A stretch of DNA of 64,000 bases from an uncultured Spirochaetota bacterium. Its GTDB lineage: Bacteria; Spirochaetota; Spirochaetia; SZUA-6; Fen-1364. A program made the translations under genes and the position numbers. The stretch lies in contig CAWAHW010000006.1 in the NCBI GenBank assembly GCA_963781885.1, forward strand, positions 1 through 64,000, in the 5' to 3' direction. Below, piece by piece: positions 1,730 through 63,959 of the stretch. The notes under the pieces are model-generated. The model did no database searches, had not been told where the DNA came from, and worked only from the letters and a program-made list of their open reading frames with translations. Each line of letters starts with the position of its first letter. The first letter of the stretch is position 1.

Positions 1730-2194
1730 ATGTCATACATCGTTGATTATGAAAACGTTTCTACGGTCGGCCTTGAGACCTCACCTGTAGCTACAGCGCT
1801 CGCTGGGTTACGGGCGAATGAGGCACGATACTATAGGAACAAGTACAAACACGAGTTCGCTGTAGAGAAGGCATCGGCGAGCAAAGATGCACTGTCGTAT
1901 GTAAGCCAGATTCTCAAGAAGGAACGAGATATCGTTTTGGGCGCGAAGCCTCTGGAAACTGCCCGCTTTCAGGTTGAGGACATTCTAATGACCTATGTCT
2001 TTTACGAAAGCGGTCTTGCGGTCAATGTAATGTATACCCTTCATGATCCCAAAAAGCGGGCCGTTGGATTCAAGCTTTCTGAAGGGATGGAAGTCCCACC
2101 AGAGCTGGAAGGCAAGTTCAAGTTCGCCAAGCAGAAGTCCAAGCTTGCTGGAGCAATCCGGGGCTCGTTCTTCGTGATCAAGGGGGAATACTGA
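1730..2194 (+). CDS. Conserved hypothetical protein in a reverse-oriented cassette
   Basis: 154 aa ORF with AAGGAG RBS; sole ORF between the attC sites at 1426 and 2307. Confidence 0.75.
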   Translation: MSYIVDYENVSTVGLETSPVATALAGLRANEARYYRNKYKHEFAVEKASASKDALSYVSQILKKERDIVLGAKPLETARFQVEDILMTYVFYESGLAVNVMYTLHDPKKRAVGFKLSEGMEVPPELEGKFKFAKQKSKLAGAIRGSFFVIKGEY

Positions 2195-2414
2195 GACTCA
2201 GTTCAGTTTTCCAGAGAAAGCAACGGCCTACGTGCGCCTGCCAGTCCAGCTTTGCCTGCAAACAGTCGCAATAGAACACGATCAAAGCAATTGCTCAAGC
2301 AGCGCCGTATAACATAAAGTTGAGTACCCGGCCCGAATCAAAGAGCGAGATTGTGTACGAGGACGGCCCTGGCACTATGCAGTTGAAATCTCAGCCGGAG
2401 TACTCCAACGCTTT

Positions 2415-2697
2415 GTTATGTCCAAGGCAGAAATGGCTAGAATTCAAGACGATCCAAAGTCTATTCCTTTGTCAGGAATTGCGTTCCGCAGTCATAGCCG
2501 GAGCGGCCATGCCACGGTGCGCGCGAATGGTCAGACGGTGAGGCGCGGCAGAAAAGGTGCGGCAGTCGTCCCGAAAGCTTTCGGACCAATGGCCGCGTAG
2601 CTACAAAGGTTCCAGATAGACTTGAATTGTAGAAGACTCCGAAACCTTCCCCCGAGCCCACATGAAGGTGTAAGAGTCGAATTCCTTTGGACATAAC
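2415..2697. other. ORF-less cassette, diverged member of non-coding family 1 (candidate structured ncRNA)
   Basis: Shares ordered motifs with the 11744 family: AAGGCAGAA, ATTCCTTT, GAATTGCGT, GAGCGGC, TGCCACGGT, CTTTCGGACCA, GGCCGCG, GAAGACTC, GAAGGTG. Confidence 0.7.
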
Positions 2698-11743: not shown

Positions 11744-12091
11744 GTTATGTTCAAGGCAGAATGGATTTGTAGTCTACGCTATGCAGAAGTCAATTCCTTT
11801 GGCCAGAATTGCGTCCGTAGGTTTTGCCAAGAGCGGCGTTGCCACGGTCTGCGGGGATTGAACAATAGGTACGAGCGCAAAGCCGAGCGCGGCTCTGTCT
11901 CCCGCTGCATCCGGACTGAACGGAGAGAAGAAATACTTGATCGTCCAGGCTTGGGACACCGGAAAGAAAAAGTCTTTCGGACCAGAGGCCGCGATGTTTC
12001 AGAGGTCCAAATGAACCTAACCTCTTGAAGACTCTTCAACTATCCAAAGATTCTGGAAGAAGGTGAAAGTTCAATTTCCTTAGAACATAAC
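11744..12091. other. ORF-less cassette, non-coding family 1 copy 1
   Basis: ~345 bp unit repeated at 45035, 51193, 54722 and 63612; frame-breaking indels between copies. Confidence 0.85.
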
Positions 12092-14873: not shown

Positions 14874-15082
14874 AGCTTATGCTACCTCAGAACAGCATAA
14901 CATAGAGTTGACCAGCGCCGCCGCATCATCCAGCCCCACCCGACGATTAGAAGGACGTTGGGTCTATCCAGACAAATTGCTAGGCGACTGGTCCAACGAT
15001 TTGTTAGCCACACCTGTCAGAAATCGACAGCAACAGGATGGGGTAGGGCAGTATTCCAACAGGGATTGTCTTGTTCTATGAT

Positions 15083-22974: not shown

Positions 22975-23089
22975 CCCGACCCTATTCTACTGAAAAGTGT
23001 GATGCAAATGCCCAAGACAATCGTACGGGTGCGTTGTTCCCGCCGCTTGCAAAGTGGCTAATGGGTCTGCGTTTGGCCCATCCTTGAAA

Positions 23090-24409
23090 TGTCCTAACTA
23101 ACACATCGTTGACACTTTTCGCAGCACATCCTAACAGTTATCTCGCTGCCCTAACCAAGCGGCCGAGCTCATCCTGGATGCGCAGCTGCCGCTCGTCAAG
23201 ATAGCCTAACAGGGTGTCGCGGTAATACACGCGCCACTTGCCCTTCACGATCTGCTCCAGTCCGACGTACTTCTCGATCAGCGTTGTGCTGACGACGACC
23301 CACTTGCTGGAGCCCCAGCGGATTGCCCCGTTGCGGCAAACGTATTTCGTGCACATGCCTTCTGGATACTTCCAGGTCCTAGTTATGCGTGGAAGGCGGC
23401 GAGGGGAGTGGCGGTAGAACTCCTTGGGCCTCCTCTGTCCCAGCGTCTGATGAGGACGCTGCACGTTGTAGAAATGACGAAAGGCGTCGAACTTGTGTTG
23501 CTGCTGGACCAGGCTGTAGGCGGCCGGCTTTGTGGCCTCAGCCTTTAGCTCTTCGTGCATCCGCTCGTGACTACCGTTCTGCTCGGGGTGAGCCGGGTCA
23601 GAATAGACCGGCTGGATCCCCAGATCCATGAGCCAGACGGCAAGCCGCGTAAGCCGCGAGAGGCTCACCCCACTGGCGAAGGGCTCTCCGTTGTCACTGT
23701 GGATATCGTTTGGGCAAACCGTACTTCTTGAAAAGGGCCTCAAATACGGCCTTTGTGCCCTCATATGTGGGATTATGCATTCCCACCACCGCCAGCACAA
23801 AGCGGCTGTAGGCGTCCATGACGGTCAGCGGGTAGCAGTAGCGCCCGTCGCCCATGCGGAACTTCCCTTTGAAGTCCACGCTCCAGATCTCGTTGGGGGC
23901 CTTCGCCTCAAAGATCGGGTGCATCTCTCGAATGCGACGAACGCGGCGCCGCTTCTTGACTAGGCCATAGCGTTTGAGCACCAAGGCGATCGTCGCCACC
24001 GAAGGCACCTTCCGCCGACCACCATACCTCTCCGTGAGCAGCTGAAAGATCTTCAGCGGACCCATGCGAGGCCACCTGCCTCGTATTCGTACGATTGCCC
24101 GCTCGATGCTCGGTGCAGTGCGGTTCCACACCCGCCGCGGAGCCCGCGATTGCTCCTTGAGTCCCGCTACACCCCGCAACAGATAGCGCAGTATGTAGCG
24201 GTAACCTAAAGTACGGGAGATACCATAAGATTTGCACAGAGCAGTGAACGTGTGCTGGCCTGACTCCCACTCAAGAACGAAACTAGCCTTTTCGTCCATC
24301 GCTGACCGTTCCCTCCAGGGCATCCCGCTCTCCTCTCGGAGAAAACGTCGCCCAAAAAAGTGTCAACGATGTGCTTAGAATTCTGTCAACGATGTGCTTA
24401 GACAGGACC
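23090..24409 (-). mobile_element. IS481-family element A, copy with frameshifted transposase (~23705)
   Basis: Same as the other copies plus a net 1-bp insertion that splits the ORF into 23138-23800 and 23694-24323. Confidence 0.93.
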
Positions 24410-27942: not shown

Positions 27943-28171
27943 ACCGTTTCCTAACTACGCCAGCGTCATCAATCGGCGGCTAACGCAGCGAAGACATTTT
28001 GAAAACGCCTAACATAGAGTTCAGTACCCGGCCCGCATCAGACGGCACCACCCCGATTTGCGCCGGCAGCGGGTCTATCCAACAAGATTCTTAGTCCGGA
28101 GTACTGCAACGACTTGTTATGCGGACCCTCTTTCCCATAGTTCTTGGTTTCATTCTACGTGTTTGCCATAG

Positions 28172-28612
28172 TCATCTATTAAGACAATCATTCAACTGAA
28201 TTTCCATGTTCTTAAGATTCAAGTCATCGTTTCTTTTTAGTATGGAGGCTATCACGGCCTCCCGATGCTTGTTGTCTGCATCCAGTTCAAATTCGTTTGT
28301 CCACCTCAACAGTGATCCTTCACCACAGTCCGATAGTCTCTGAATAGACAGTTGGTATATGAAAGGAGGCATGGGCTGCCTTCGTTGGATGATTATGGCA
28401 AAAGTTTCTGGGATGGTAATCCTTTCTATCTCAACGTCACCTATTCCTTCCACCTTTGAAACAGATCGCATAAGTCGGTCATTGTGAAACAGTACGGCGG
28501 TGTTGCGTCCAAAGTTAGGATCAATGGCCTTCATAAAGTCAATTGACGCGATCTGTTTGAAAACTGCTTCTTTGGGAAAGCTAAATAGCACTTGTTCTTC
28601 AATTCTCGGCAT
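28172..28612 (-). CDS. SRPBCC/START-like protein (copy 1)
   Basis: Near-identical to 37829-38269; the fold call is a guess from the sequence pattern. Confidence 0.6.
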   Translation of the reverse strand: MPRIEEQVLFSFPKEAVFKQIASIDFMKAIDPNFGRNTAVLFHNDRLMRSVSKVEGIGDVEIERITIPETFAIIIQRRQPMPPFIYQLSIQRLSDCGEGSLLRWTNEFELDADNKHREAVIASILKRNDDLNLKNMEIQLNDCLNR

Positions 28613-29528: not shown

Positions 29529-29686
29529 GAATCCGTCTCCGAGTGGTAATTACATTATATATACCAAAGTGGCGTTCTGTCAAGTCTTGCTTGGCGATGT
29601 ATAAAGGCCGCGGCGGTTCGGCTGTAAGCCAATTCATTTGTGTTCTGGTGATGCCAGCCTTGGACCCTAGAGACGAATTGATCTTG

Positions 29687-31005
29687 TGTCCTAACTAACA
29701 CATCGTTGACACTTTTCGCAGCACATCCTAACAGTTATCTCGCTGCCCTAACCAAGCGGCCGAGCTCATCCTGGATGCGCAGCTGCCGCTCGTCAAGATA
29801 GCCTAACAGGGTGTCGCGGTAATACACGCGCCACTTGCCCTTCACGATCTGCTCCAGTCCGACGTACTTCTCGATCAGCGTTGTGCTGACGACGACCCAC
29901 TTGCTGGAGCCCCAGCGGATTGCCCCGTTGCGGCAAACGTATTTCGTGCACATGCCTTCTGGATACTTCCAGGTCCTAGTTATGCGTGGAAGGCGGCGAG
30001 GGGAGTGGCGGTAGAACTCCTTGGGCCTCCTCTGTCCCAGCGTCTGATGAGGACGCTGCACGTTGTAGAAATGACGAAAGGCGTCGAACTTGTGTTGCTG
30101 CTGGACCAGGCTGTAGGCGGCCGGCTTTGTGGCCTCAGCCTTTAGCTCTTCGTGCATCCGCTCGTGACTACCGTTCTGCTCGGGGTGAGCCGGGTCAGAA
30201 TAGACCGGCTGGATCCCCAGATCCATGAGCCAGACGGCAAGCCGCGTAAGCCGCGAGAGGCTCACCCCACTGGCGAAGGGCTCTCCGTTGTCACTGTGGA
30301 TCTGTTTGGGCAAACCGTACTTCTTGAAAAGGGCCTCAAATACGGCCTTTGTGCCCTCATATGTGGGATTATGCATTCCCACCACCGCCAGCACAAAGCG
30401 GCTGTAGGCGTCCATGACGGTCAGCGGGTAGCAGTAGCGCCCGTCGCCCATGCGGAACTTCCCTTTGAAGTCCACGCTCCAGATCTCGTTGGGGGCCTTC
30501 GCCTCAAAGATCGGGTGCATCTCTCGAATGCGACGAACGCGGCGCCGCTTCTTGACTAGGCCATAGCGTTTGAGCACCAAGGCGATCGTCGCCACCGAAG
30601 GCACCTTCCGCCGACCACCATACCTCTCCGTGAGCAGCTGAAAGATCTTCAGCGGACCCATGCGAGGCCACCTGCCTCGTATTCGTACGATTGCCCGCTC
30701 GATGCTCGGTGCAGTGCGGTTCCACACCCGCCGCGGAGCCCGCGATTGCTCCTTGAGTCCCGCTACACCCCGCAACAGATAGCGCAGTATGTAGCGGTAA
30801 CCTAAAGTACGGGAGATACCATAAGATTTGCACAGAGCAGTGAACGTGTGCTGGCCTGACTCCCACTCAAGAACGAAACTAGCCTTTTCGTCCATCGCTG
30901 ACCGTTCCCTCCAGGGCATCCCGCTCTCCTCTCGGAGAAAACGTCGCCCAAAAAAGTGTCAACGATGTGCTTAGAATTCTGTCAACGATGTGCTTAGACA
31001 GGACC
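29687..31005 (-). mobile_element. IS481-family element A (1319 bp)
   Basis: Ends TGTCCTAACTAACACATCGTTGACA / GGTCCTGTCTAAGCACATCGTTGACA; tandem TGTCAACGATGTGCTTAGA at the transposase 5' end. Confidence 0.93.
29735..30919 (-). CDS. IS481-family DDE transposase
   Basis: MPW start, HTH, WSVDFKG, HSDNG and QNGSHER motifs. Confidence 0.93.
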   Translation of the reverse strand: MPWRERSAMDEKASFVLEWESGQHTFTALCKSYGISRTLGYRYILRYLLRGVAGLKEQSRAPRRVWNRTAPSIERAIVRIRGRWPRMGPLKIFQLLTERYGGRRKVPSVATIALVLKRYGLVKKRRRVRRIREMHPIFEAKAPNEIWSVDFKGKFRMGDGRYCYPLTVMDAYSRFVLAVVGMHNPTYEGTKAVFEALFKKYGLPKQIHSDNGEPFASGVSLSRLTRLAVWLMDLGIQPVYSDPAHPEQNGSHERMHEELKAEATKPAAYSLVQQQHKFDAFRHFYNVQRPHQTLGQRRPKEFYRHSPRRLPRITRTWKYPEGMCTKYVCRNGAIRWGSSKWVVVSTTLIEKYVGLEQIVKGKWRVYYRDTLLGYLDERQLRIQDELGRLVRAAR

Positions 31006-32661: not shown

Positions 32662-33228
32662 TCAGTCATCATTATCTCTTGCTGAAATTCTATTTCCTTC
32701 CGTTGCCGGCTCAATCTGCGTTCTCAAGGCTGCAAGGCGTTCCTTTGCTGTTCCGGTTTCACGTAGGCCAAGACCCTTTCTCATCTGACCGCCAAAGCTG
32801 TAATTGTTGCTGGCGCTTCCGTTCAGCAGCGTTGCTTCCTCGTCGGAGAGTATCACTACTTCAGTTTGGCTCATAATCTCATGGATGACTGCTTGGGAGA
32901 CAACTTTGGCACTGGTCTTGGCCTTCAATAGCTCATTGAAAGTGGCCTCAATAGGCCATATGTGCTCATACATTACCTTCGCTGGTTCCTTTTGATATTG
33001 AATCCAGGCCCTCTTGGTAAAGCGAAAGTATCTTTTGTACAGGTCGAACACCTTATAAGGCTCCTGGCTATCCATGTCGAATTCCGGATAGTGTCTTATC
33101 AGAGTCTTTATGGTGACTTTGAATGCTGGCTTTGACAGCGTTTCGGCATCATAGCTATTCAGTATTTCAAGAAGCAGCCTTTCGCACAGACTCTGATACG
33201 GTGTAATGGACGAAGAGGCAGTTTCCAA
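32662..33228 (-). CDS. Hypothetical protein (YEHIWP motif), copy 1
   Basis: Homolog at 49545-50070; AGGAG RBS before a TTG start. Confidence 0.65.
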   Translation of the reverse strand: METASSSITPYQSLCERLLLEILNSYDAETLSKPAFKVTIKTLIRHYPEFDMDSQEPYKVFDLYKRYFRFTKRAWIQYQKEPAKVMYEHIWPIEATFNELLKAKTSAKVVSQAVIHEIMSQTEVVILSDEEATLLNGSASNNYSFGGQMRKGLGLRETGTAKERLAALRTQIEPATEGNRISARDNDD

Positions 33229-33479
33229 ATGGCGTTCTCCTTGCAAGTTGAATCAAGCAAATCAGGTTAGCAGGATTCAACTCCTCCTTAAAGGGGAAGA
33301 AAAGCGATGCAGTCTACGTGAGGAAATTGCAGCCTTTTAGCAAAAAGCGTCACCTACTTCACTCTTGAATGCATAACATAGAGTTGACCAGCGCCGCCGT
33401 ATCAACCAGCACCACCCGACGATTAGGAAGAAGTTGGGTCTATCCAGATAAATTTCGAGGCGACTGGTCCAACGATTTG

Positions 33480-34256
33480 TTAGCCATTTGGCGTCACCTT
33501 CGCGCCGCAAAGCTTCAGCAATGCAAAGTTGCCTTCATAGAAGTCCCCTGTCTGAGTTGCCGATTGAATTCGTGCAAGGCCTTTCCGATATTCCTTTTCG
33601 CTCAGGAGATTCAGCTGTGACATATCGCGGTTTCTAGCTTCTTCCAGCAACGAAGTCAAAGGAAAAGCCTTTTCGGTGATGGTCGTGGTCAGTTCCACGC
33701 TGAAGCCGCACTTTGCGAATGCCTTTCGCAGATGATCATTGCTCCAGAATCTCTGCCTATCAATTTTCCGTGCACCTTTGAAGTAGTGGTATACCCATGA
33801 CAGCGGCATCGCTTCGGGACAAATGTTCTTCATTTGGAAAACCCCACCTGGCTTCAAAATGCGGTGGAATTGGCTAATGCAGCTGACCTTACCTTGGAAA
33901 TGATGAAATGCAAAATTGCAGGTGACGAAGTCGAACTGCTCGTTGGGATATGGCAGATCCGCGGCATCAGCGGTTGTCAATTCGATACCATTTGCCAGCT
34001 TGGCCTTCGAAATAGAAAGCATGTCCAGAGACAGATCGCAGCCGTGCCACTTTATCCGCTTGTCGGGGAAATACTCTGTCTGGGCGAGGAGAAAGTTGCC
34101 AGTGCCGCAAGCAACATCCAGTATCAATATGGTTTTGTTTGTAGAAGAAAGAAGCCTACCTATGTGCGGCTCGGGGTCGTATTGAAGGCGAATGGGGTTC
34201 TTGTCGTAGACTTTTGCTATCGCCGAGTAGTCCGCAGTTTTCAAGAAGTTCTCCAT
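33480..34256 (-). CDS. Class I SAM-dependent methyltransferase (copy 1)
   Basis: ILDVACGTG, AFHHF and RILKPGG motifs. Confidence 0.9.
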   Translation of the reverse strand: MENFLKTADYSAIAKVYDKNPIRLQYDPEPHIGRLLSSTNKTILILDVACGTGNFLLAQTEYFPDKRIKWHGCDLSLDMLSISKAKLANGIELTTADAADLPYPNEQFDFVTCNFAFHHFQGKVSCISQFHRILKPGGVFQMKNICPEAMPLSWVYHYFKGARKIDRQRFWSNDHLRKAFAKCGFSVELTTTITEKAFPLTSLLEEARNRDMSQLNLLSEKEYRKGLARIQSATQTGDFYEGNFALLKLCGAKVTPNG

Positions 34257-34261
34257 TCCAA

Positions 34262-35580
34262 TGTCCTAACTAACACATCGTTGACACTTTTCGCAGCACA
34301 TCCTAACAGTTATCTCGCTGCCCTAACCAAGCGGCCGAGCTCATCCTGGATGCGCAGCTGCCGCTCGTCAAGATAGCCTAACAGGGTGTCGCGGTAATAC
34401 ACGCGCCACTTGCCCTTCACGATCTGCTCCAGTCCGACGTACTTCTCGATCAGCGTTGTGCTGACGACGACCCACTTGCTGGAGCCCCAGCGGATTGCCC
34501 CGTTGCGGCAAACGTATTTCGTGCACATGCCTTCTGGATACTTCCAGGTCCTAGTTATGCGTGGAAGGCGGCGAGGGGAGTGGCGGTAGAACTCCTTGGG
34601 CCTCCTCTGTCCCAGCGTCTGATGAGGACGCTGCACGTTGTAGAAATGACGAAAGGCGTCGAACTTGTGTTGCTGCTGGACCAGGCTGTAGGCGGCCGGC
34701 TTTGTGGCCTCAGCCTTTAGCTCTTCGTGCATCCGCTCGTGACTACCGTTCTGCTCGGGGTGAGCCGGGTCAGAATAGACCGGCTGGATCCCCAGATCCA
34801 TGAGCCAGACGGCAAGCCGCGTAAGCCGCGAGAGGCTCACCCCACTGGCGAAGGGCTCTCCGTTGTCACTGTGGATCTGTTTGGGCAAACCGTACTTCTT
34901 GAAAAGGGCCTCAAATACGGCCTTTGTGCCCTCATATGTGGGATTATGCATTCCCACCACCGCCAGCACAAAGCGGCTGTAGGCGTCCATGACGGTCAGC
35001 GGGTAGCAGTAGCGCCCGTCGCCCATGCGGAACTTCCCTTTGAAGTCCACGCTCCAGATCTCGTTGGGGGCCTTCGCCTCAAAGATCGGGTGCATCTCTC
35101 GAATGCGACGAACGCGGCGCCGCTTCTTGACTAGGCCATAGCGTTTGAGCACCAAGGCGATCGTCGCCACCGAAGGCACCTTCCGCCGACCACCATACCT
35201 CTCCGTGAGCAGCTGAAAGATCTTCAGCGGACCCATGCGAGGCCACCTGCCTCGTATTCGTATGATTGCCCGCTCGATGCTCGGTGCAGTGCGGTTCCAC
35301 ACCCGCCGCGGAGCCCGCGATTGCTCCTTGAGTCCCGCTACACCCCGCAACAGATAGCGCAGTATGTAGCGGTAACCTAAAGTACGGGAGATACCATAAG
35401 ATTTGCACAGAGCAGTGAACGTGTGCTGGCCTGACTCCCACTCAAGAACGAAACTAGCCTTTTCGTCCATCGCTGACCGTTCCCTCCAGGGCATCCCGCT
35501 CTCCTCTCGGAGAAAACGTCGCCCAAAAAAGTGTCAACGATGTGCTTAGAATTCTGTCAACGATGTGCTTAGACAGGACC
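34262..35580 (-). mobile_element. IS481-family element A with intact transposase 34310-35494
   Basis: CCAA target duplication; the empty site is visible in the paralogous cassette at ~57948-57962. Confidence 0.95.
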
Positions 35581-37507: not shown

Positions 37508-37828
37508 GGGTCACCTCGTACCCGTAACGTACTACGTTGTCATACATTTGTCAAGTATTCCAGCTTGCTTCCCGCCTATCGAGGTAAAGATATCAATCTG
37601 CCCGAAATGTATCAGAAAGGTGGTTTTCTCAATCAAATTTGTACGAAAACAGACTCTGATTGGACATAACACAGAGTTCAGTACCCGGCCCGCATCAGAA
37701 CGGCACCACAGAGATTTGCACCGGCCGCGGGTCTATTCGACAAGATTCTAGCCCGGAGTACTGCAACGATTTGTTATGCGGACCCTCTTTCCTATAGTTC
37801 TTGGTTTCATTCTACGTGTTTGCCACAG

Positions 37829-38269
37829 TCATCTATTCAGACAATCATTCAACTGAATTTCCATGTTCTTAAGATTCAAGTCATCGTTTCTCTTTAATAT
37901 GGAGGCTATCACGGCCTCCCGATGCTTGTTGTCTGCATGCAGTTCAAATTCGTTTGTCCACCTCAACAGTGTTCCTTCACTACAGTCCGATAGTCTCTGA
38001 ATAGACAGTTGGTAGATGAAAGGAGGCATGGGCTGCCTTCGTTGGATGATTATGGCAAAAGCTTCTGGGATAGTAATCCTTTCTATCTCAACGTCACCTA
38101 TTCCTTCTACCTTTGAAACAGACCGCATAAGTCGGTCATTGTGAAATAGTACGGTGGTGTTGCGTCCAAAGTTAGGATCAATGGCCTTCATAAAGTCAAT
38201 TGACGCGATCTGTTTGAAAACTGCTTCTTTGGGAAAGCTGAATAGCACTTGTTCTTCAATTCTCGGCAT
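37829..38269 (-). CDS. SRPBCC/START-like protein (copy 2)
   Basis: Duplicate of the 28172-28612 cassette. Confidence 0.6.
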   Translation of the reverse strand: MPRIEEQVLFSFPKEAVFKQIASIDFMKAIDPNFGRNTTVLFHNDRLMRSVSKVEGIGDVEIERITIPEAFAIIIQRRQPMPPFIYQLSIQRLSDCSEGTLLRWTNEFELHADNKHREAVIASILKRNDDLNLKNMEIQLNDCLNR

Positions 38270-39266: not shown

Positions 39267-39747
39267 AGGACAACTCCTTAGGTTTTTGGTTTCTCACATT
39301 AATTTGGAAGGCGCGTTTGTCCGCTATTGGGCGGCCTATGCGGCAGAAGCATGGGACATTGCGTTGCGAAATATTGGCTGGCGTAGTCGCTTGGCGGGAA
39401 TATGCAAGTTGCCGACTATTCGCCTTTGCACCTAACATAGAGTTGACCAGCGCCGCCGCATCAAACAGCCCCACCCGACGATTAGGAAAAAGTTGGGTCT
39501 GAACAGGCAAATTCCAAGGCGACTGGTCCAACGATTTGTTACACGCCCCTCTATTTTTTGCACCTTACTACTATTGAGGCTTGTATTTCCTGACACCTTT
39601 TAATAAACCATGGACAACTCCGCAAACAATGCGGTACGCTGTTTTCGCTCGTTTCGTGGCAAGAGCGCGCTAGTCTTACACGGATATTTAGCGAGCTTTA
39701 GTTGAGAGTGTCAAAAATGCAACACGACCCGCTGCTGACTGTGGTTC

Positions 39748-45034: not shown

Positions 45035-45383
45035 GTTATGTTCAAGGCAGAATGGACTTGTAGTCTACGCTACGCAGAAGTCAATTCCTTTGGCCAGAAT
45101 TGCGTCCGTAGGTTTTGCCAAGAGCGGCGTTGCCACGGTCTGCGGGGATTGGGCAACAGGTACGGGCGCAAAGCTGAATGCGGCTCTGTCTCCCGCTGCA
45201 TCCGGACTGAACGGAAGAGAAGAAATACTTGATCGTCCAGGCTTCGGACACCGGAAAGAAAAAGTCTTTCGGACCAGAGGCCGCGATGTTTCAGAAGTCC
45301 AAATGAACCTAACCTCTTGAAGACTCTTTAGCTATCCAAAGATTCTGGAAGAAGGTGAAAGTTCAATTTCCTTAGAACATAAC
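45035..45383. other. ORF-less cassette family 1 copy 2
   Basis: Homolog of 11744-12091. Confidence 0.85.
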
Positions 45384-49151: not shown

Positions 49152-49408
49152 GTTAGATTCAAGAAATCTTTTCAACCGAAGCAAGGCGGACATTGTGAAC
49201 GAGCGTGAACATCTCCAGAGCACAGGCATCTGCTGTAGACACGTATTTAGGCAGCAACTGAACTTACGGCGGATGGTCTAGTGAAGTGCAAGTCTGCTGT
49301 AGCGTTGCCATTAGCCATAGAATTCCAGAAACTTGAGAAAAGCGACGGTTGCACTTTGGAAAAGGAACGAGTGAAAAAGACAACTTCTAATTGAAGATTG
49401 AATCTAAC
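49152..49408. other. ORF-less cassette family 2 copy 1
   Basis: ~255 bp; homolog at 52456-52711 carries the same variant attC. Confidence 0.8.
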
Positions 49409-49544
49409 ATAGAGTTGACCAGCGCCGCCGCATTATCAAGCCGCACACCGACGATTAGGATAAAGTTGGGTCTAAGCAGATAAAATCCTAGGCGACTGGT
49501 CCAACGATTTGTTATGCATTCAACCTTCTGGCTGTCAGTCATCA

Positions 49545-50070
49545 CTATTCTCTTGCTGAAATTCTATTTCCTTCCGTTGCCGGCTCAATCTGCGTTCTCA
49601 AGGCCGCGAGGCGTTCCTTTGCTGTTCCGGTTTCACGTAGGCCAAGACCCTTTCTCATCTGACCGCCAAAGCTGTAATTGTTGTTGACGCTTCCGTTCAG
49701 CGGCGTTGCTTCCTCGTCGGAGAGTATTACTACTTCAGTTTGGCTCATAATCTCATGGATGACTGCTTGGGAGACAACATTGGCACGGGTCTTGGCCTTC
49801 AATAGTTCATTGAAAGTGGCTTCTATAGGCCATAGGTGCTCATACATTACCTTCGCTGGTTCCTTTTGATATTGAATCCAGGCTCTCTTGGTAAAGCGAA
49901 AGTATCTTTTGTACAGGTCGAACGCCTTATAAGGCTCCTGGCTATCCATGTCGAATTTCCGGATAGTGTCTTATCAGAGTTTTTATGGTGACTTTGAATG
50001 CTGGCTTTGACAGAAGAAGCAACCTTTCGCACAGACTCTGATACGGTGTAATGGACGAAGAGGCAGTTTC
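49545..50070 (-). pseudogene. Degraded copy of the 32662-33228 gene
   Basis: ~30 bp deletion near 50012 and a 1-bp insertion near 49957 relative to copy 1. Confidence 0.7.
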
Positions 50071-51192: not shown

Positions 51193-51541
51193 GTTATGTT
51201 CAAGGCAGAATGGACTTGTAGTCTACGCTACGCAGAAGTCAATTCCTTTGGCCAGAATTGCGTCCGTAGGTTTTGCCAAGAGCGGCGTTGCCACGGTCTG
51301 CGGGGATTGGGCAACAGGTACGGGCGCAAAGCTGAGTGCGGCTCTGTCTCCCGCTGCATCCGGACTGAACGGAAGAGAAGAAATACTTGATCGTCCAGGC
51401 TTGGGACACCGGAAAGAAAAAGTCTTTCGGACCAGAGGCCGCGATGTTTCAGAAGTCCAAATGAACCTAACCTCTTGAAGACTCTTTAGCTATCCAAAGA
51501 TTCTGGAAGAAGGTGAAAGTTCAATTTCCTTAGAACATAAC
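51193..51541. other. ORF-less cassette family 1 copy 3
   Basis: Near-identical to 45035-45383, including the attC. Confidence 0.85.
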
Positions 51542-52455: not shown

Positions 52456-52711
52456 GTTAGATTCAAGAAATCTTTTCAGCCGATGCAAGGCGGACATTGT
52501 GCATGAGCGTGAACATCTCCAGAGCACAGGCATCTGCTGTAGACACGTATTTAGGCAGCAACTGAACTTACGGCAGATGGTCTATTGAAGTGCAAGCCTG
52601 CTATAGCATTGCGATCAACCATGGAATTCCAGAATCTCAGCAAGGCGGCGGTGGTTCTTTGAATCAGGAATGTGCGAAAAAGACAACTTCTAATTGAAGA
52701 TTGAATCTAAC
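52456..52711. other. ORF-less cassette family 2 copy 2
   Basis: Homolog of 49152-49408. Confidence 0.8.
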
Positions 52712-52907
52712 ATAGAGTTGACCAGCGCCGCCGCATCAACCAGCCCCACCCGACGATTAGGGCAACGTTGGGTCTATCCAGACAAAATCTCAGGCGACTG
52801 GTCCAACGATTTGTTAGGCGTTTTCTTTCCGTCTTTGCTTAAATAGTGGGATGCAGCGCTTGCGTTCTATCAGCCGGTTTGTGATTTCCCTCCTATGCTG
52901 ACGCAGA

Positions 52908-54721: not shown

Positions 54722-55072
54722 GTTATGTTCAAGGCAGAATGGACTTGTAGTCTACGCTATGCAGAAGTCAATTCCTTTAGCCAGAATTGCGTTCGTAGGT
54801 TTTGCCAAGAGCGGCGTTGCCACGGTCTGCGGGGATTGAACAATAGGTACGAGCCCAAATCCGAGCGCGGCTCTGTTTCCCGCTGCATCCGGACTGAAGG
54901 GAAGAGAAGAAATACTTGATCGTCCAGGCTTGGGACACCGGAAAGAAAAAGTCTTTCGGACCAAGAGGCCGCGATGTTTCAGAGGTCCAAATAGACGTAA
55001 CCTCTTGAAGACTCTTCAACTATCCAAAGATTCTGGAAGAAGGTGAAAGTTTCATTTTCCTTTGAACATAAC
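54722..55072. other. ORF-less cassette family 1 copy 4
   Basis: Homolog of 11744-12091 with indels. Confidence 0.85.
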
Positions 55073-63611: not shown

Positions 63612-63959
63612 GTTATGTTCAAGGCAGAATGGACTTGTAGTCTACGCTATGCAGAAGTCAATTCCTTTGGCCAGAATTGCGTCCGTAGGTTTTGCCAAGA
63701 GCGGCGTTGCCACGGTCTGCGGGGATTGGGCAATAGGTACGGGCGCAAAGCCGAGCGCGGCTCTGTTTCCCGCTGCGTCCGGACTGAACGGAAGAGAAGA
63801 AATACTTGATCGTCCAAGCTTGGGCACCGGACAGAAAAAGTCTTTCGGACCAGAGGCCGCGATGTTTCAGAGGCCCAAATGAACCTAACCTCTTGAAGAC
63901 TCTTCAACTATCCAAAGATTCGAGAAGAAGGTAAAAGTTCAATTTCCTTCGAACATAAC
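63612..63959. other. ORF-less cassette family 1 copy 5
   Basis: Homolog of 11744-12091 with indels. Confidence 0.85.

Follow-up and report, generated by a model that had tools for sequence, protein, structure and literature searches.

A gene-less integron cassette family with site-specific sequence constraint in an uncultured Spirochaetota bacterium

The stretch of 64,000 nucleotides analysed here (positions 1-64000 of contig C6, hereafter the window) belongs to a 4.64-Mb genome of an uncultured Spirochaetota bacterium assembled in seven contigs. At positions 2415-2697 it holds a 283-nt element, which a preliminary description had singled out as a shorter and diverged relative of a repeated family devoid of open reading frames, and in which stems were thought to have been preserved in spite of heavy substitution. 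The question raised by this locus is therefore what kind of element it represents, and whether selection has acted on a nucleic-acid fold, as was then proposed, or on something else. The coordinates of all features discussed below are collected in Table 1.

The window is filled with repeats of approximately 100 nt, one every 0.4-4 kb (families D1, D2, D5 and D14), which start with ...YAACATAGAGTT and end with ...CAACGATTTGTTA. These repeats are attC sites, and 71 such motifs were counted in the genome. The integrase gene (C6:69065-70444, plus strand) is situated outside the window, 0.8 kb past the last repeat, and scored 403 bits with the integron-integrase model TIGR02249 (cut-off 265). The cassette direction was deduced to be the minus strand from three observations: intI, on the plus strand, is transcribed divergently from the cassettes; the minus strand holds the longest open reading frame in 66 of the 80 intervals between attC sites; and in copies of the long family described below the left attC (in plus coordinates) co-varies with the body, whereas the right-hand one does not. 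Positions 2314-2696 (383 nt, minus strand) make up a complete but gene-less integron cassette, the integrase end of the array being some 66 kb away. Its ends carry ACATAAC and GTTATGT, i.e. RYYYAAC / GTTRRRY core sites with complementary R boxes, and its attC contains the inverted arms 2309-2322/2406-2419 and 2322-2336/2391-2405. The 283-nt stretch that was initially described corresponds to the body of this cassette together with both 7-nt core sites.

Table 1. Positions of the short form (S), its parts and the copies of the long form (L); window coordinates unless a contig is named
Feature	Position	Strand	Remark
S, complete gene-less cassette	2314-2696	-	bounded by G|TT crossover points (minus-strand reading)
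S, own attC recombination site	2314-2421	-	repeat families D1/D2
S, non-coding body, 275 nt	2422-2696	-	no shared ORF, even codon-position substitutions, no Pfam or protein match
Extended R-box arm GTTATGTCCAAGG	2415-2427		pairs with 2684-2697
Partner arm CCTTTGGACATAAC	2684-2697		
Hairpin P3, ATTCCT/AGGAAT	2463-2479	-	L at the same place: CAATTC(T)/(G)GAATTG
Block GAGCGGC-NN-TGCCACGGT	2501-2518	-	all but NN invariant, 9/9 copies
Stem-closed central domain, GCGGC...GCCGC	2559-2596	-	contains hairpin 2568-2586; the 67-column gap versus L falls here
Hairpin CTACAA/TTGTAG	2601-2632		between GGCCGCG and GAAGAC; z approx. -1.4 in S
Invariant block GAAGACTC	2632-2639		9/9 copies
Nested stems GACTC/GAGTC and ACCTTC/GAAGGT	2635-2678		complete in S only
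L copy	11744-12091	-	body and core sites
L copy	45035-45383	-	body and core sites
L copy	51193-51541	-	body and core sites
L copy	54722-55072	-	body and core sites
L copy	63612-63959	-	body and core sites
L copies beyond the window	C6:66056-66404, C5:307479-307828, C5:312559-312908		

Nine copies of the family were recovered from the genome by BLAST, nhmmer and a covariance model alike, and nhmmer detected nothing in the same genome beyond these nine. Eight of them constitute the long form L, with lengths of 348-351 nt for body and core sites and 449-452 nt for the whole cassette; they are mutually 91-99% identical, three of them at the level of 99%. The remaining copy, S, can be aligned with L from end to end with the order of blocks unchanged and one internal gap of 67 columns, which explains the difference in length of 65-68 nt; 159 of the 254 aligned inner columns (63%) are identical to the L consensus. 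S is a diverged paralog of the L cassette, one branch shorter, and the preliminary description of it as keeping the motif order of the long family while being about 65 nt shorter and heavily substituted was accurate. The neighbours of the nine copies are mutually unrelated, and the similarity ends at the attC boundaries. No recurrent protein family was found in the neighbourhood of the nine copies, and their downstream neighbours have no family or orientation in common. The copies would thus have spread singly, cassette by cassette, through recombination at attC by the integron integrase.

Open reading frames of 60-106 amino acids can be called mechanically on both strands of the family members; they are different in each copy, because one-base indels in five columns of the alignment of the eight L copies shift the frames, and none is common to all copies. 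The 50 variable sites among L copies are distributed as 17/17/16 over the three codon positions, and the differences between S and L in the gap-free stretch as 17/14/14; in that same stretch, the amino-acid identity between S and L is 13-16 of 37 residues in all six frames. Five open reading frames of the family had no match in Pfam, and searches of a large protein collection likewise gave no homolog.

The evidence for selection comes from the comparison of the two forms. Exact runs of at least 7 nt shared between S and L number 10, versus 3.5 expected, and none of 2000 permutations reached 10. Among the columns in which S agrees with the L consensus, 15 of 159 vary between L copies, versus 25 of 95 where S differs (odds ratio 3.4, Fisher p = 0.0006). 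The sequence of the body is hence constrained in a site-specific manner, the same sites being kept at two evolutionary depths; neither neutral decay nor recent copying would by itself produce such a pattern. The motifs TGCCAC and GAAGAC, previously described as invariant, are indeed unchanged in 9/9 copies. The block at 2501-2518 could form, on the minus strand, a hairpin GUGGC-ANN-GCCGC whose loop would take up the two variable bases; taken alone, this hairpin folds no better than shuffled sequences. Selection on the family is seen mainly in sequence blocks rather than in a fold.

All inverted repeats named in the preliminary description are present in S at the positions given there, but the claim that the stems persist holds only partly for L: when the 31 pairs were followed over the nine sequences (alignment A2), 76.2% of the cells were standard pairs, and three pairs were changed on both sides. 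The 13-bp terminal stem, formed by GTTATGTYCAAGG with CCTTNGRACATAAC and showing one double change from T-A to C-G, is a generic attC R-box stem and not special to this family. Perfect complementarity of the cassette ends has a median of 12 nt across 77 cassettes, the R-box stems of this array being unusually long. As such a stem is common to the cassettes of the array, it must be set aside when the fold is judged.

Among the internal elements, hairpin P3 is strong in both lineages and scored better on the minus strand (z of -6.4 for the short form and between -2.9 and -4.6 for L) than on the plus strand (-2.8 and -0.7 to -2.0, respectively). L keeps four of the six pairs of ATTCCT/AGGAAT and extends the hairpin outward instead (CAATTC/GAATTG). 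The stem GCGGCCAT/ATGGCCGC has five invariant pairs, followed in L by a G.G mismatch and two more pairs; a second GCGGC (2559-2563) rivals GCGGCCAT for the partner ATGGCCGC. This second GCGGC opens the central domain, in which S and L have both the closing stem GCGGC/GCCGC and the terminal hairpin CCGAAAG/CTTTCGG in common (minus-strand z of -3.0 in S and -2.1 to -2.3 in L), and the 67 extra columns of L are inner branches of this domain. Further on, CTACAA/TTGTAG was said to replace the AGAGGT/ACCTCT of the long family: L does have a hairpin at the same place, but it is formed in another register (TTC-AGAGGT/ACCTCT-T-GAA), with three of the six CTACAA/TTGTAG pairs at matching columns. Of the nested stems, GACTC/GAGTC retains three of its five pairs in L and ACCTTC/GAAGGT five of six, and the fold of the 2635-2678 segment was no better than that of shuffled sequences. 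Three local hairpins can be considered credible, namely 2463-2479, the 2559-2596 domain and 2601-2632, the last of which is individually weak. Long-range repeats differ between S and L. In S, an 18-nt inverted repeat (2437-2454 with 2615-2632, 83% complementary, with no counterpart in L) joins the first variable segment to the 2601-2632 hairpin.

The statistics of a fold shared by S and L are less favourable once the terminal stem is set aside. Folded singly, S gave z values of -2.66 on the plus and -3.78 on the minus strand, and L -2.25 and -1.87, respectively. The shared fold of S and one L copy beats column shuffles as long as the attC stem is included (z of -2.7 on plus and -4.1 on minus); without the 13-bp stem, the values dropped to -1.1 on the plus strand, where 16 of 100 shuffles were as good, and to a borderline -1.8 on the minus strand (4 of 100). 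When the trimmed minus-strand fold was computed on four sequences, three of them L copies, z was -3.4 (0/100), a value that mostly measures L. Conserved stems with double changes numbered seven versus 1.6 expected if G.T was allowed on the plus strand (0/60 shuffles reached this number), and four versus 1.65 on the minus strand (7/60); it should be noted that several of these stems are mutually exclusive. We rejected the global minimum-energy fold of the L consensus as the fold of the family, as it is not kept in S: out of the 57 pairs for which S has letters, 17 are unchanged in S, three are double-changed and paired, 15 are of wobble type and 22 are mismatched. Variants of L copies at the pairs of this fold (nine wobbles on plus, eight wobbles on minus, seven mismatches and one compensated change) had no strand bias. 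For a 93-nt domain, a covariance model that took its sequences and stems only from L scored S at 40.9 bits versus 33.4 bits for sequence only, the structure adding 7.5 bits; 20 of its 26 pairs hold in S, and of the 12 pairs that are changed in S, six remain paired (three of them through double changes) and six break, a proportion near the random expectation of 0.375. Altogether, a fold shared by S and L is weakly supported, the power of covariation being low with two lineages only. The earlier proposal of selection on a nucleic-acid fold was partly right: selection is evident, some hairpins are shared and the deletion is modular, but the selection lies mainly on sequence blocks and a global fold is unsupported.

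Evidence on the strand that would carry the structure of S and L is mixed. The better z values of the shared fold and the scores of P3 and of the central domain favour the minus strand, and in several cases a change on one side of a pair in L copies leaves it paired only as G.U on this strand. The plus strand is favoured by one invariant T.G pair, by the GGCT/AGTC pairing in S, which fits this strand only, and by the stronger excess of double-change stems with G.T allowed.

Searches with L by BLASTN found no true homolog in 60 relatives or in a further 91 genomes from the same order, and in 400 genomes of the phylum only matches of 20-43 nt at E >= 0.001; the covariance model R1 likewise had no match in the 91 genomes of the order. 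An exact-pattern search of genome contigs produced 0 matches for pattern C+D and 46 for pattern D+E, the latter confined to the pattern itself and with no attC nearby, and the metagenome contigs, scanned by one exact pattern (F+G), yielded 18 matches, none similar beyond the pattern. However, only 0-2 attC-like sites occur in each of 24 family-level relatives of the bacterium, versus 71 here, and comparable arrays are not assembled there, so that the absence of homologs says little. Rfam 15 had no match in the window and nothing for S up to E = 10; a single chance match was obtained for L (12 bits versus a gathering score of 45). Consensus scans of S and L revealed no intrinsic terminator and, on both strands, no sigma-70-like promoter, the consensus possibly not being that of the host. 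A reading of the TGGCA motifs as sigma-54 promoters was rejected by eye on their spacing. With the attI/intI leader region, neither S nor L showed complementarity beyond chance matches of 7-10 nt.

Outside the genome, an S-like variant with approximately 90% identity was detected among the contigs of a freshwater-sediment metagenome (DNA run X1) that covers parts of the stretch; it has nine differences over 2457-2539 and seven over 2618-2705. No RNA run was found to contain the stretch. The S-like variant carries the L state at positions 2490, 2494, 2496 and 2497. Within the 2635-2678 region, four of its five listed changes fall in loops; the fifth, T2648>C, affects a stem and leaves a wobble there on the minus strand, in keeping with an RNA from this strand. 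A third lineage of the family is therefore represented in X1.

In large chromosomal integrons, cassettes without a gene account for a sizeable and unexplained fraction, and the integron-borne RNA of Xanthomonas campestris goes by the name of sRNA-Xcc1. One close parallel is provided by the paralogous non-coding cassettes of Vibrio, which are reported to have close homologs or none and to look selected, and for which selfish and regulatory roles were proposed (PMC1382264). Like these, S and L are bounded by attC and gene-less, occur as several paralogs per array, show full-length conservation but no codon pattern, and are matched elsewhere by close homologs or by none. They differ from the Vibrio cassettes in the type of integron and attC, in their provenance (an uncultured bacterium of a freshwater-sediment type of metagenome), and in the presence of two forms as far apart as 63% identity and set apart by an internal branch of 67 columns. 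As for the definition used by Boucher et al. 2006 (PMC1382264), the mechanical open reading frames of S and L exceed the 150-bp limit for ORF-less cassettes, none being common to the copies; in other respects the two forms agree with that definition, having no protein match, full-length homologs and no synonymous-site pattern. Regulatory RNA cassettes borne by the integron of X. campestris are mentioned in a review (PMC8876359); S and L resemble them in being gene-less and in their proposed RNA role, but have no match in Rfam. Promoter-bearing ORF-less cassettes have been reported from an oral metagenome (PMC6557892; summarised in PMC8876359) and are similar to S and L in that they have no gene, lie within an array and might affect their neighbours, but S and L, unlike them, have no recognisable sigma-70-like promoter on either strand (this may not be the consensus of the host). 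Finally, structured motifs detected elsewhere have included attC sites themselves (PMC5737381). In S, the terminal stem of 13 bp is the same kind of pairing as in the folded single-stranded attC of that report, whereas the 275-nt body of S lies outside attC and is not a simple hairpin. As it stands, gene-less integron cassettes are already known and S/L adds one more lineage-restricted family to them; the two forms in one genome, at 63% identity, show constrained blocks and a dispensable branch.

As for the mechanism, the leading candidate, which we put forward tentatively and at somewhat less than an even chance, is that the body functions as non-coding RNA, transcribed in cassette orientation (minus). 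It would form part of array transcripts from the minus strand, with local hairpins at a small number of sites (2463-2479, the domain at 2559-2596 and possibly 2601-2632), and a protein or a target RNA might recognise it by the invariant blocks (TGCCACGG, CTTTCGGACC..GGCCGCG and GAAGACTC). The negative scans for promoters, terminators and Rfam families speak against this reading, as does the L-consensus fold, which breaks down in S. If such a role is true, this would be a rare case of an integron spreading a non-coding RNA. A more far-reaching version, which we consider rather doubtful, is that the nine copies represent a mobile, modular structured RNA with a stem-closed core, recognition blocks and an optional 67-nt branch, amplified to about one-tenth of the >110-kb array to the benefit of the integron or the host; this structured RNA, if real, might process or stabilise long array transcripts or regulate targets in trans. 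Against any RNA stands the thought that the family is a selfish or neutral passenger with no function for the cell, which attC mobility and gene conversion keep in multiple copies and whose constraint serves its own excision, insertion and retention. Nine copies with unrelated neighbours, three of them 99% identical, would be expected of such a passenger, as would the lack of homologs outside its own genome in the searches and the weak evidence for a fold, and a selfish role has been among those proposed for the paralogous non-coding cassettes of Vibrio (Boucher et al. 2006, PMC1382264). We consider this unlikely on the whole, as neutral drift would not keep the same sites both between S and L and among L copies (p = 0.0006) in clustered blocks, and gene conversion cannot explain the conservation between forms that have diverged to 63% identity.

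The same conservation in short blocks rather than in pairing may also be read as that of a regulatory cassette acting as double-stranded DNA, i.e. as a promoter, an operator or a set of protein sites for neighbours far from the array promoter, with the repeats being binding palindromes (ATTCCT-N5-AGGAAT; CCGAAAG/CTTTCGG). The promoter activity reported for ORF-less cassettes from oral Treponema (PMC8876359, PMC6557892) offers a precedent. Such a cassette is nevertheless decidedly unlikely: the downstream neighbours share neither family nor orientation, some of the pairings need G.U or G.T, which would be meaningless in duplex DNA, and neither S nor L has a sigma-70-like promoter on either strand, a weak argument inasmuch as the consensus may not be that of the host. 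Improbable, too, is a single-stranded DNA structure, in which the body would fold on the recombining strand (the bottom strand, here plus), modulate the folding of attC or the access of the integrase and so set its own mobility. The excess of double-change stems, which is strongest with G.T on the plus strand (7 vs 1.6; 0/60 shuffles), and the closure of the body by the 13-bp attC stem would suit this structure, as would the known action of attC sites as folded single strands (PMC5737381); yet the trimmed shared fold on the plus strand was no better than shuffles (16/100 as good), the local hairpins score better on minus, and no complementarity of at least 10 nt between body and attC was found beyond the R boxes. 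A small protein gene, or a decayed one, to which the mechanical frames of 60-106 amino acids on both strands might point, is very improbable indeed, as no frame is common to the copies, frames shift, codon periodicity is missing at either depth, neither a Pfam match nor a protein homolog was found, and site-specific constraint would not be seen in a decayed gene.

Several features of the array surrounding the family were also recorded. The chromosomal integron spans more than 110 kb over three contig ends (window 1-64000 with C6 to 68234, C5:300582-334167 and C4:792460-808160). Beside the main class of attC sequences (…CACCCGGCCCGCATCAG…), a second class exists (…GACCAGCGCCGCCG…GACTGGTCCAACG…, repeat family D5), found at 2684-2802, 14888-15006, 33364-33482, 39423-39541 and 52698-52816. 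The cassette downstream of S, in cassette direction, has an inverted 154-aa open reading frame at 1730-2194 (+) with no Pfam match. Another, unrelated gene-less family is present at 49153-49511 and 52457-52813 (357-359 nt, approximately 94-96% identical); it is closed by an 11-nt attC end stem, and a longer cassette at C5:309190 has the same start, GTTAGATTCAAGAAAT. Inside the array, an insertion sequence occurs in identical copies at 23088-24224, 29685-30820 and 34260-35395 (and 1-300), the open reading frame at 29735-30919 (minus) encoding a protein of 394 aa with rve integrase-core and HTH domains and near-identical proteins being found on C5. Coding cassettes have been duplicated as well, with 96% identity between 28092-28391 and 37749-38048 (D18) and between 32675-32974 and 49549-49848 (D19).
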